64,000 bases of DNA, taken from positions 768,001 to 832,000 of the forward strand of contig CAVYTA010000005.1 of assembly GCA_963771355.1 (NCBI GenBank), written 5' to 3'. The number at the start of each line of letters is the position of its first letter. Position 1 is the stretch's first letter. A model generated the notes under the pieces. It searched no databases. It saw only the letters and a list, made by a program, of their open reading frames with translations, and was not told the origin of the DNA. The translations under genes were made by a program, and so were the position numbers. Below are positions 33,931 through 40,200 of the stretch, one piece after another. The DNA is from an uncultured Candidatus Rokubacteria bacterium. Its GTDB lineage: Bacteria > Methylomirabilota > Methylomirabilia > Rokubacteriales > CSP1-6.

Positions 33931-35196
33931 ATGAGTGACACCACCGCGAGCCCGCGCCCCCGACACCTCACCGTGAACGGCCGGACCTATGACTGGCCCC
34001 GACGGCCGCTGGTGGTGGTCTGCGTGGACGGCTGCGAGCCGGACTATCTCACGCAGGCGATCGCTGCCGGCGCGATGCCGTGGCTCGGCCCCACCCTCGA
34101 CCGCGGCACCAATCGCCTCGCGGACTGCGTGATCCCGAGCTTCACCAATCCCAACAATCTCTCCATCGTCACCGGCGCCCCCCCGGCGGTGCACGGGATC
34201 TGCGGCAACTACTTCTGGGATGCGGACGCGGGGGTGGAGGTCATGATGAACGACCCCAAGTACCTCCGCGCCGAGAGCATCCTGGCCGCGTTCTCCCAGG
34301 CCGGCGCCCGGGTGGCGGTGGTCACCGCCAAGGACAAGCTGCGCCGGCTCCTGGGCGAGGGGCTCCGCCTCGGCGCGGACGGTACCGCCGTCTGCTTTTC
34401 TTCGGAGCGCGCCGCCGAGACCACGCGGGTGGAGCACGGGCTCGACGATGCCGCCGCCTGGCTGGGTCGCCCGGTGCCGTCGGTGTACAGCGCTGACCTC
34501 TCGGAGTTCGTGTTCGCGGCGGGCGTGAAGCTGATGGAGACGGCGAGCCCGGATCTCGTCTACCTCTCCACCACCGACTACGTCCAGCACAAGCACGCGC
34601 CCGGCACCGAGGAGGCGAACGCCTTCTACCGCATGATGGACGGCTACCTCGCGCGGCTGGACGCGCTGGGCGCCACCGTGGCGCTCACCGCGGATCACGG
34701 GATGAACGGCAAGACCGACTCCGCCGGTCGCCCGCAGGTGATCTACCTCCAGGACGTGCTGGACGGCTGGATCGGCGCCGCGCGCGCCCGCGTGATCCTG
34801 CCCATTACCGATCCGTACGTGGTCCACCACGGGGCGCTCGGCTCCTTCGCCACCGTGCACTTGCCCCCCGGCGCGGACGTGGCCGGCACCGTCTCGCGGA
34901 TCGCGGCGCTCTCGGGCATGGAGCTGGTGCTGGACCGGGACACCGCCTGCCGGCGCTTCGAGCTGCCCGAGGACCGCATGGGCGATGTGGTGGCGGTGTC
35001 GCGGCGGGACTGGGTGATCGGGACCAGCGCGGCCAAGCACGATCTCTCGGGGCTCGACGTGCCGCTCCGCTCCCACGGTGGGATCAGCGAGCAGCGCGTG
35101 CCGCTCCTGGTGAGCCGTCCCACGCCGACCCTGGCCGCCGACACTCCCCTTCGCAACTTCGACATCTACGACGTGGCCCTGAACCACGTCGACTGA
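33931..35196 (+). CDS. phnA: Phosphonoacetate hydrolase
   Basis: [50 protein letters not shown]. Confidence 0.95.
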
Positions 35197-35208
35197 CCGA
35201 GGCGCCCC

Positions 35209-36636
35209 ATGGCCGACATCCGCCGCGAGAGCATGCGCATTGCCGGAGAGCACGTCGTCTCCGAGCGGGTCATCGAGGTCGAGAATCCGTGGAACGGTGC
35301 GCTGGTGGGCACGGTGCCCAAGGCCACCGTGGCCGACGTCCGGCGCGCCTTCGCCGCCGCGCGCGGCTTTCGCTCGCCGCTCTCCCGTCACGAGCGCTCC
35401 CTGATCCTCGCGCGCACCGCGGAGCGGCTTGCCGCCCGGCGGGAGGAAATCTCGGACCTCATCACCGCGGAGTCGGGCCTTTGCAAGAAGGACACGCTCT
35501 ACGAGGTGGGGCGCGCGGGTGACGTCTTCACCTTCGCCGCCCACGCCGCGCTCAGCGACGACAGCCAGACCTTCCCCTGCGACGTGAGCGCCCAGGGTCG
35601 GCGCCGGCGCATCTACACGCAGCGCGAGCCCCTGCGCGCCATCGCCGCCATCACCCCGTTCAACCACCCCCTCAACCAGGTGGCCCACAAGGTGGCGCCC
35701 GCCATCGCCACCAACAACAAGATGGTGCTCAAGCCGTCGGAGAAGACGCCGCTCACCGCGCTCCTCCTCGCCGACGTGCTCTACGACGTGGGACTGCCGC
35801 CCGCCATGTTCTCGGTGGTGACGGGCGACCCCGCCGAGATCGCGGACGAGCTCGTCACCAACGCCGACTCCGAGCTGATCACCTTCACCGGCGGGGTGGA
35901 GGTGGGCAAGGCCATCGCCGGCAAGCTGGGCTATCGCCGCGCCGTCCTCGAGCTGGGCGGCAATGACCCCCTCATCGTGATGGAGGACGCCGACCTCCAG
36001 GAGGCGTCCTCCCTGGCGGTGTCGGGCGCCTACCGGAACTCCGGCCAGCGCTGCACCGCGGTGAAGCGCATCCTCGTCCAGGAGTCGGTCGCCGCCCGCT
36101 TCGTGGACCTGCTGGTGGAGAAGACCCGGCTGGTGAAGTACGGCGATCCCATGGATCCCACCGTGGACATGGGCACCGTGATCGACGAGCGGGCGGCGCG
36201 CCGCTTCCAGTCCCTGGTGGAGGACGCGATGGGGCGCGGCGCCCGGCTCCTCTACGGCAACGAGCGGCGGGGCGCGCTCTATAGCCCCACCGTGCTCGAC
36301 CGCGTTCCCGCCGACTGTGAGCTGGTGGCGCGCGAGACCTTCGGCCCGGTGGCCCCCGTGATACGCTTCGGCGACATCGAGGAGGCGATCCGCATCGCCA
36401 ACGGGACCCCTTACGGCCTCTCCTCCGCGGTGTGCACCAATCGCTGGGACTGGATCACCCGCTTCGTGAGCGGGCTCGAGGTGGGCACGGTCAATGTCCG
36501 GGAAGTGCCCGGCTACCGGCTGGAGAGCTCGCCCTTCGGCGGGATCAAGGACTCGGGCCTGGGCTACAAGGAGGGCGTGCTCGAGGCGATGAAGAGCTTC
36601 ACCAACGTCAAGACCTACTCGCTGCCCTGGCCGTGA
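35209..36636 (+). CDS. phnY: Phosphonoacetaldehyde dehydrogenase
   Basis: ALDH with ITPFNHPLNQVAHK, NSGQRCTAVK, VPGYR..SPFGGIKDSGLGYKEG; follows phnA. Confidence 0.93.
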   Translation: MADIRRESMRIAGEHVVSERVIEVENPWNGALVGTVPKATVADVRRAFAAARGFRSPLSRHERSLILARTAERLAARREEISDLITAESGLCKKDTLYEVGRAGDVFTFAAHAALSDDSQTFPCDVSAQGRRRRIYTQREPLRAIAAITPFNHPLNQVAHKVAPAIATNNKMVLKPSEKTPLTALLLADVLYDVGLPPAMFSVVTGDPAEIADELVTNADSELITFTGGVEVGKAIAGKLGYRRAVLELGGNDPLIVMEDADLQEASSLAVSGAYRNSGQRCTAVKRILVQESVAARFVDLLVEKTRLVKYGDPMDPTVDMGTVIDERAARRFQSLVEDAMGRGARLLYGNERRGALYSPTVLDRVPADCELVARETFGPVAPVIRFGDIEEAIRIANGTPYGLSSAVCTNRWDWITRFVSGLEVGTVNVREVPGYRLESSPFGGIKDSGLGYKEGVLEAMKSFTNVKTYSLPWP

Positions 36637-39080: not shown

Positions 39081-39090
39081 AGGAGCCGCG

Positions 39091-40200
39091 ATGGAGCCCT
39101 ATCTCCTGACGCCGGGACCGCTCACCACCTCGCTCACCACCAAGCAGGCGATGCTGCGCGACTGGGGCTCGCGGGACGTGGAGTTCATCCGCCTCAACGC
39201 CCGGGTGCGCGAGCGGCTGGTCGAGCTGGCGGGAGGAAGCGGCACCCATGTCTGCGTGCCGCTCCAGGGCAGCGGGACGTTCCTCGTGGAGGCCATGCTG
39301 GCGACCATGGTGCCCCCGGAGGGGAAGGTGCTCCTCCTCGTCAACGGCGCCTACGGCAAACGCATGGTCCGTATGTGCGAGTACCATCGCCGCGCCCATA
39401 CGGTGATCGAGGTGCCCGAGGACCACCCCGTGGATCCCGTGGCCGTCGACGCGGCGCTGGCGGCGGACCCCGCCATCACCCACGTGGCGGTGGTGCACTG
39501 CGAGACCACCTCGGGGGTGCTGAATCCGGTGGCCAGGGTCGCGGAGGTCGTCGCCCGGCGGGGCCGCCGGCTTCTCATCGACTCCATGAGCGCGTTCGGG
39601 GCCATTCCGCTGGATGCCGCGCGCATTCCCTTCGACGCCATGGTGTCCTCCGCGAACAAGTGCCTGGAAGGCGTGCCGGGCATGGGCTTCGGCATCATCC
39701 GTCGCACCGCGCTGGAGAGCGCCCGGGGCCAGTGCGGATCGCTCTCGCTGGACCTGCACGATCAGTGGACGGCCATGGAGAAGACCGGGCAATGGCGCTT
39801 CACGCCGCCCACCCATGTCATCGCCGCTCTGGACCAGGCGCTCACCGAGCATGCCGCGGAAGGGGGCGTGGAAGGACGGGGCGCCCGCTATGCGCGCAAC
39901 TGCGGCATTCTCGTCTCGGGGCTCCGCGCGCTCGGCTTCAAGACCCTGCTCCCGGACGCGCTGCAGGCGCCCATCATCGTGACGGTGCGGATGCCCGCGG
40001 ACCCCGCCTTTCACTTCGACGCCTTCTACGATCGGCTCGCCGAGCGCGGCTACGTGATCTATCCCGGCAAGCTCACCGTGGCCGACAGCTTCCGCATTGG
40101 CTGCATCGGGCGCCTGGGGGAGGCGGAGATGCACGGCGTGCTCGACGCCATCCGGGACATTCTCAAGGACATGGGCGTGAGCCGCTGCGGTCCGGCCTGA
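39091..40200 (+). CDS. phnW: 2-aminoethylphosphonate-pyruvate transaminase
   Basis: LLTPGPLTTS, DWGSRD, HCETTSG, SSANKCLEGVPG, QWRFTPPTH, IYPGK. Confidence 0.96.
   Translation: MEPYLLTPGPLTTSLTTKQAMLRDWGSRDVEFIRLNARVRERLVELAGGSGTHVCVPLQGSGTFLVEAMLATMVPPEGKVLLLVNGAYGKRMVRMCEYHRRAHTVIEVPEDHPVDPVAVDAALAADPAITHVAVVHCETTSGVLNPVARVAEVVARRGRRLLIDSMSAFGAIPLDAARIPFDAMVSSANKCLEGVPGMGFGIIRRTALESARGQCGSLSLDLHDQWTAMEKTGQWRFTPPTHVIAALDQALTEHAAEGGVEGRGARYARNCGILVSGLRALGFKTLLPDALQAPIIVTVRMPADPAFHFDAFYDRLAERGYVIYPGKLTVADSFRIGCIGRLGEAEMHGVLDAIRDILKDMGVSRCGPA

Follow-up and report, generated by a model that had tools for sequence, protein, structure and literature searches.

A 64,000-nucleotide stretch of the genome of an uncultured Candidatus Rokubacteria bacterium (assembly GCA_963771355.1, contig CAVYTA010000005.1, positions 768,001 to 832,000), referred to here as the window, encodes an operon for 2-aminoethylphosphonate (AEP) catabolism that includes a gene for an 815-aa flavoprotein with a folate-binding domain. 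The forward strand carries, in order, the phosphonoacetate hydrolase gene phnA (33931..35196, 421 aa; TIGR02335, 593 bits against a cut-off of 408), the phosphonoacetaldehyde dehydrogenase gene phnY (35209..36636, 475 aa; TIGR03250, 816 against 636), the flavoprotein gene (36633..39080) and the AEP-pyruvate transaminase gene phnW (39091..40200, 369 aa; TIGR02326, 490 against 401). The GTG start of the flavoprotein gene shares the letters GTGA with the TGA stop of phnY, and 10 nt separate its own stop from the phnW ATG at 39091. The open reading frame (ORF) coordinates therefore agree with the overlap and spacing described in an initial annotation, and the scores uphold its phnA, phnY and phnW calls. 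These three genes and the transporter genes phnS2, phnT2 and phnU2 further downstream were identified by passing NCBIfam equivalog cut-offs, and together they place the locus in the PhnWAY pathway for AEP. From its Pfam domains, its alignment to 1pj5 and 4p9s, an AlphaFold model and a survey of gene neighbourhoods, we predict that the 815-aa protein is an N-methyl-AEP demethylase of the DMGDH/DMGO/MabO family that binds flavin adenine dinucleotide (FAD) and folate.

By domains, fold and residues, the protein is assigned to the GcvT-fused DAO family, which comprises dimethylglycine dehydrogenase (DMGDH), SARDH, dimethylglycine oxidase (DMGO) and MabO. The Pfam layout is DAO (7-362), FAO_M (367-420), GCV_T (422-694) and GCV_T_C (719-807), the four-domain architecture of rat DMGDH (4PAB/4P9S), human DMGDH (5L46) and Arthrobacter DMGO (1PJ5). 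The motif TWHAAG, read initially as a covalent-FAD signature, lies at 44-49 and is consistent with one, its H46 aligning with DMGO H48, the FAD-bearing residue of that enzyme. Counted along the alignment to 1pj5/4p9s, H46, H225, Y251 and D530 correspond to H48, H225, Y259 and D552 of DMGO, and all four are invariant across the nine groups compared. They represent the covalent-FAD histidine, the His/Tyr dyad and the acidic residue of the folate site; D552 is named in the title of the tetrahydrofolate (THF) complex structure 3gsi. D530, Y625 and E632 are invariant in the folate domain, which is full length. The covalent-FAD histidine, the His/Tyr dyad, the role of THF and the electron-transfer flavoprotein (ETF) as acceptor have been described (PMC5082570). 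The AlphaFold model (mean pLDDT 83.7, pTM 0.82, with loops at 43-56 below pLDDT 50) superimposes on the solved rat and human DMGDH and Arthrobacter DMGO structures with TM-scores of 0.86-0.89, the value for rat DMGDH (4pab) being 0.89. Sequence identity to these enzymes is 32-33%, however, and the clade of the 815-aa protein differs from them in having K147, M226, K253 and H401, residues nearly limited to its phn-linked members when groups were compared, and in sitting in AEP rather than betaine clusters. Databases name the family 'sarcosine dehydrogenase' or '4-methylaminobutanoate oxidase'.

Neighbourhoods were surveyed for the best 80 of 272 relatives in GTDB genomes, with flanks of up to 10 kb. 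The closest named relatives are Rokubacterial, with up to 93-95% identity. A phn catabolic gene (phnA, W, Y, X or pbfA) is present in 61 of the 80 loci, a number that rises to 64 when AEP transporter and regulator genes are included and leaves 16 with none. The phn-linked loci span Rokubacteria, Rhizobiales and Steroidobacteraceae, plus Ruegeria, and the gene is partnered with both phnYA and phnX. Its order is phnA-phnY-gene-phnW in the genus of the window and phnA-gene-phnW in other Rokubacteria; phnCE-gene-phnW-phnX occurs at one locus (L137), DeoR-gene-phnR-Na/Pi-phnWAY in Mesorhizobium and Sinorhizobium, phnWAY-transporter-GlxA-DeoR-gene in Ensifer and Shinella, and phnW-gene or phnAY-gene in Steroidobacteraceae and at L074. 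In Ruegeria AD91A, whose relative is 58% identical, the run is glyA-DeoR-gene-EamA-transporter-phnR-phnWAY-pbfA, with glyA two genes upstream of the copy. Of the 16 loci that lack phn neighbours, 10 were followed up by searching the genome: six have phnW (68-70% identity) beside phnX and one has phnWYA, so that 7 of the 10 have phnWX or phnWYA at another site, while two of the remaining three have a weak PhnW-like match only (39-42%) and one has none. Five rhizobial genomes encode 4-8 family members each, and it is the member belonging to the clade of the window that occupies the phn cluster.

On pSymB of Sinorhizobium meliloti, which shares the PhnWAY core genes and transporter, the orthologue (62% identity; WKL29899.1 in CP130053.1) lies beside phnR-Na/Pi-phnWAY, although it is annotated merely as an 'FAD-dependent oxidoreductase', has its own DeoR regulator and is separated from phnW by two genes. 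There (L121:2348-21124), the DeoR and orthologue pair is located between a taurine cluster and phnR-Na/Pi-phnWAY.

Paralogues served as controls, drawn from 20 regions with matches at 58-66% identity and 20 at 42-51%, picked for long contigs, plus six plasmid regions. None of the 16 loci of a paralogue clade from the same phylum (59-63% identity) contains phn genes. Among 25 more distant loci (40-53% identity), phn catabolic enzymes are found in none and phnS2/U2 in five. The other five of the first 20 control regions fall in the clade of the window, and all have phnA or phnS2/U2 adjoining. These controls rule out chance adjacency of the 815-aa gene to phn genes. The neighbourhood survey suggested by the initial annotation, for which homologues lacking any phn association would have been the adverse outcome, thus found an association that is both recurrent and specific to one clade (61 of 80 loci against 0 of 16 paralogue loci). 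In a full-length FastTree phylogeny of 137 proteins, from which short matches and sequences interrupted by stop codons were left out, the Rokubacterial and proteobacterial phn-linked groups form this clade with support of 0.997. The phn association of the folate-linked gene is real, and it recurs in several unrelated bacterial groups.

The association was followed across 200 genomes of the phylum, a sample that overlaps partly with the 80-locus survey and includes kin that are not independent; three unpublished genomes (G172, G173 and G061) are counted in these tallies only. PhnW at 74% identity or above occurs in 27 of the 200 genomes, seven weaker matches (42-51%) being kept outside the tally. 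In 26 of the 27 the gene lies directly upstream of phnW, as 23 intact or partial matches on the same contig and three frameshifted copies, and in the 27th the contig ends within phnW. PhnA, by comparison, is encoded in 104 of the 200 genomes, and the tie is therefore to phnW. As a separate observation, 103 of 126 genomes in the family to which the window belongs have phnA, usually with no phnW or phnY; phosphonoacetate may be used directly by such organisms, or their PhnA may serve a different function.

AEP breakdown by PhnWAY is well established, and PhnW requires a primary amine. Given the chemistry of the family, the preserved folate site and the linkage with phnW, we consider it fairly probable that the 815-aa enzyme demethylates N-methyl-AEP to AEP in a THF-dependent manner and so feeds PhnW. 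The covalent FAD would oxidise the N-CH3 bond to an iminium, as known family chemistry suggests, and the iminium would be channelled to the folate domain to yield 5,10-methylene-THF and AEP, with electrons probably passing to ETF. PhnW, PhnY and PhnA would then convert AEP to phosphonoacetaldehyde, phosphonoacetate and finally acetate plus phosphate. The monomethyl compound is most likely the substrate, since the gene usually stands alone beside phnW with its need for a primary amine; N,N-dimethyl-AEP is possibly a substrate as well. FolD, GlyA and ETF are all encoded in the genome of the window, and no second full-length DMGDH-like gene was found there.

A precedent for this chemistry exists within the family. 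MabO demethylates a non-glycine N-methylamine to a primary amine for a transaminase, and in Arthrobacter it works beside the methylamine-releasing Mao, so that two regiochemistries act on N-methylaminobutyrate (PMC6122326). By analogy, the 815-aa enzyme would be the demethylating counterpart of the Pbf oxidoreductases PbfB, PbfC and PbfD, as MabO is to Mao. It differs from MabO in that the latter acts on a carboxylate in a nicotine pathway, and its identity to a presumed MabO in our survey (L126) is about 39%. That protein was taken as MabO from the order of its operon, purU-FAD enzyme-folD, and not from its name.

Several findings weigh against N-demethylation upstream of PhnW. A copy at 71% identity or above is present in 30 genomes of the phylum; seven of these have no intact close phnW beside it, and three genomes that are 95-99% complete (G096, G097 and G092) keep the gene and have no PhnW above the family cut-off. 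G096 carries phnA-gene-phnX, the layout expected if the enzyme itself makes phosphonoacetaldehyde. A phnY gene is missing from G119 (phnA-gene-phnW) and from the phnW-less G096 and G097. Several Rokubacterial copies or paralogues occur with phnS2TU, a glutamine-synthetase-like (GS-like) gene and a short-chain dehydrogenase/reductase (SDR) gene but no phnW, a context that fits methylated ethanolamine phosphates too. Folate one-carbon genes adjoin the gene only in isolated cases; the operon of the window tolerates bystanders such as recQ; and the numerous rhizobial loci are close kin and not independent. Finally, an IQ-TREE phylogeny of the FAD domain (69 sequences) joins the two halves of the clade, themselves supported at 99.7 and 90.8, with an SH-aLRT of only 10.

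The strongest rival holds that the enzyme acts on N-methyl-AEP (or AEP) and cuts the other C-N bond, giving methylamine and phosphonoacetaldehyde, with the folate domain idle or structural. PbfB, PbfC and PbfD are PF01266 flavoproteins that, like the 815-aa gene, recur in phnWX and phnWYA clusters, and they funnel N-methyl-AEP into the pathway (Zangelmi 2023, PMC10590968). In that study, PbfC and PbfD bind FAD non-covalently and convert N-methyl-AEP to phosphonoacetaldehyde and methylamine; formaldehyde was sought and not found, and the three enzymes are reported to be mutually exclusive in AEP clusters (main text of PMC10590968). The long gene likewise recurs in phnWX and phnWYA clusters with no other Pbf oxidoreductase present (PbfC being covered in the 80 loci and TIGR03329 in five genomes): no short PbfC occurs in the 80 loci, where the best identity is 34.6%. 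This absence matches the reported exclusion, although mutual exclusion suits a demethylase equally. What keeps a PbfC-like reaction alive is the set of seven genomes without close phnW beside the copy, the three near-complete genomes without PhnW and the single phnA-gene-phnX arrangement. Other evidence argues against such a reaction and leaves it unlikely: the folate domain is complete with its invariant residues, the gene stands directly upstream of phnW in all but one of the close-phnW genomes, and PbfC itself is distant. For PbfC we took the FAD enzyme gene that Azospirillum B510 carries between phnX and pbfA, following the cluster described in PMC10590968. It encodes 415 aa without the covalent-FAD histidine and without a folate domain, both of which the 815-aa protein has, and its identity to the FAD domain of the latter is 30%. 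PbfC is 28-34% identical to the phn-linked clade, no closer than to paralogues, and in the FAD-domain tree, which answers the call in the initial annotation for a phylogeny against Pbf proteins, it sits on a long branch external to every one of the long proteins. Length (815 against 415 aa), H46, identity and tree position together rule out that the 815-aa protein is the characterised PbfC. The expectation that FAD accessory enzymes of AEP clusters are smaller and lack the folate domain is correct for PbfC, whose regiochemistry also differs. For PbfD1 (TIGR03364), the 815-aa protein scores 59 bits against a cut-off of 285; a TIGR03364 search of the genome of the window gave no matches, but its controls were silent as well. 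TIGR03329 is not among the 25 of 30 families displayed for window proteins, and it was rejected as the rhizobial cluster gene, five genomes giving no match above cut-off and nothing in their phn clusters. In the genome of the window, a TIGR03329-like FAD oxidoreductase (G000:C2:43973-45340) scores 424 against 633 bits, below the cut-off, on a contig other than that of the phn operon; it adjoins genes for an ABC binding protein and dioxygenase-like proteins. A PbfC search at 1e-70 in 201 Pseudomonadota genomes found none, with no positive control, and among plasmids only the source record matched.

The long genes have probably been seen before under another name. A 2025 paper lists 'pbfC' for clusters of Mesorhizobium, Ensifer adhaerens and Shinella zoogloeoides (PMC12366243), genera in which we found only the long protein, a point that also speaks for a PbfC-like reaction. 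In five genomes of the genera Mesorhizobium, Ensifer and Shinella, of strains that differ from those of the 2025 paper, the best PbfC matches are long proteins at 30-36% identity, and a 41-kb region surrounding pbfA in S. zoogloeoides Teo12 contains two long genes and no short PbfC. Because the strains checked have no short PbfC and the best match is the long protein or its paralogue, the long genes were probably lumped with PbfC, their folate domain not being discussed; the words 'folate' and 'GcvT' do not occur in the main text of PMC10590968 or in PMC12366243. Our literature search, which covered few subscription papers, found no description of a folate-linked enzyme in AEP clusters. The suggestion of an undescribed variant has to be qualified, as the genes were probably already listed as 'pbfC' (PMC12366243).

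Downstream of phnW, the same-strand run continues to 48283, so that the phnA-phnW core of the operon stands while the end initially placed at 40200 does not. The next gene (40245..41625) encodes a GS-like gamma-glutamyl-amine ligase and is split, with Pfam Gln-synt_C in each half. It is broken by one extra base near 40988-40990 and forms a single 459-aa ORF at locus L005; since the base is missing from the contigs of all four runs compared, the frameshift is most likely an assembly error. An SDR of 254 aa follows (41633..42397; adh_short_C2), which accompanies the GS-like gene and phnS2TU at six loci (L001, L005, L008, L026, L098 and L106). The putative AEP ABC transporter comprises the binding protein PhnS2 (42417..43448; TIGR03261, 429 bits against 393), the ATPase PhnT2 (45398..46543; TIGR03265 above cut-off) and the permease PhnU2 (46547..48283; TIGR03262 above cut-off). 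Within the transporter genes, a recQ-family helicase gene (43453..45405; TIGR00614 above cut-off) is a probable bystander, located between phnS2 and phnT2 and overlapping the phnT2 start, a position kept at L001, L005, L008 and L026. One contig from an RNA run links 43446 to 45461 with different intervening letters and probably derives from a relative without recQ. Contigs from RNA runs X16 and X19 span the region, although as assembled contigs they are no proof of transcription, and a promoter and terminator scan of the region gave signals no better than chance.

These downstream genes bear on a second rival, in which the true substrate is an analogue imported by the same transporter, either an N-methylated phosphoethanolamine or ethanolamine, or N-methyltaurine. 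The GS-like ligase and SDR after phnW in the window fit such a substrate, as do GS-like, aldehyde dehydrogenase and alcohol dehydrogenase genes flanking the copies at L027 and L029, and the Sinorhizobium copy adjoins a taurine cluster. The idea is kept alive by clusters that combine phnS2TU, GS-like and DMGDH-type genes without phnW (L094, L095, L098, L103, L106 and L111). Yet taurine genes (tauA or pta) are adjacent in only three Sinorhizobium/Ensifer loci, most phn-linked loci have no GS-like gene, the L027 and L029 genomes have phnWX clusters elsewhere, and the tightest partner is phnW; we regard an analogue substrate as improbable, ranking it after the PbfC-like reaction. As an observation in its own right, the GS-like gene and SDR are found together with phnS2TU in several Rokubacteria, alongside varying DMGDH-type paralogues and often without phnW (L094, L098 and L106), and they possibly form a route for glutamylation of ethanolamine or aminophosphonates.

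Least likely, and very improbable in our view, is an ordinary DMG or sarcosine dehydrogenase, present by chance or clearing sarcosine or DMG from an oxidative (PhnY*Z/TmpAB) or C-P lyase route, which the database names, the GbdR-like regulator and GbcA-like Rieske protein among rhizobial neighbours and a sub-threshold PhnZ-like HD gene in the genome of the window would favour, but against which stand the 32-33% identity to DMGDH/DMGO, the exclusion of chance by the paralogue controls and the placement of this clade, out of 4-8 members per rhizobial genome, in the phn cluster. The HD protein (G000:C6:1599889-1600479) scores 168 bits, under the TIGR03276 cut-off of 215, and is also present in G145 and G119; it has no dioxygenase neighbour in a crude ORF call, and none was found in G211 or G214.

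Some relatives of the N-methyl-AEP demethylase proposed here occur in larger sets. A second paralogue (about 45% identity) is present in 12 rhizobial loci of the 80, with a GbcA-like Rieske gene (361 bits against a cut-off of 670) in 11 of them. Two genomes, Shinella zoogloeoides Teo12 (L165) and Sinorhizobium RAC02 (L166), hold the Rieske gene, this paralogue and the 815-aa-type gene in one cluster with phnWAY, pbfA and pbfF, and in Aminobacter the three lie near phnWAY. At 13 metagenome loci of the paralogue (at least 78% identity), the Rieske gene precedes it in eight, and a relative of the window protein (about 58-65% identity) is nearby in seven. We tentatively suggest, as a possible but doubtful scheme, a cascade from trimethyl- through dimethyl- and monomethyl-AEP to AEP, in which the Rieske oxygenase would act first, two DMGDH-type enzymes would next transfer methyls onto THF, and PhnW, PhnY and PhnA would act last, in parallel to the route from betaine through dimethylglycine and sarcosine to glycine. 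The genome of the window has no counterpart of the 45% paralogue and, for the Rieske gene, nothing beyond a weak match (37% over 200 aa).

Two further loci carry related sets. On a Leisingera thetidis plasmid (L164:1598-13344), sarcosine-oxidase-like subunit genes and a different Rieske oxygenase gene lie directly upstream of phnW-phnA-phnY-pbfA, possibly a convergent N-demethylation module. A Rokubacterial locus (L117:1103-11777) combines phnD/C/E and phnS2TU in one run with a GbcA-like Rieske gene and a DMGDH-type paralogue of 43% identity, and no close phnW was found in that genome. The TmpA/TmpB system likewise degrades an N-methylated AEP, trimethyl-AEP, but there the C-P bond is broken by iron oxygenases, yielding glycine betaine, with no prior demethylation (PMC10574752).

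The idea of a demethylase is cheap to test, because the model organism S. meliloti has an orthologue and syntheses of the substrates have been published. Among natural phosphonates, N-methylated AEPs are common, and to our knowledge the enzymes that bring methyl-AEPs into the hydrolytic pathway release methylamine, only one of them taking the dimethyl form, and weakly. If our reading is true, the 815-aa enzyme would provide a chemically distinct entry that retains the methyl carbon and reducing power, and a probable mislabelling as PbfC would be corrected. Together with the Rieske module, it would give a second route for trimethyl-AEP; were the cascade true, the organism of the window would represent a one-enzyme version that could harvest one-carbon units even without phnW. 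In soil Rokubacteria, in rhizobia and in marine alphaproteobacteria, phosphonate use would then be linked with one-carbon metabolism.

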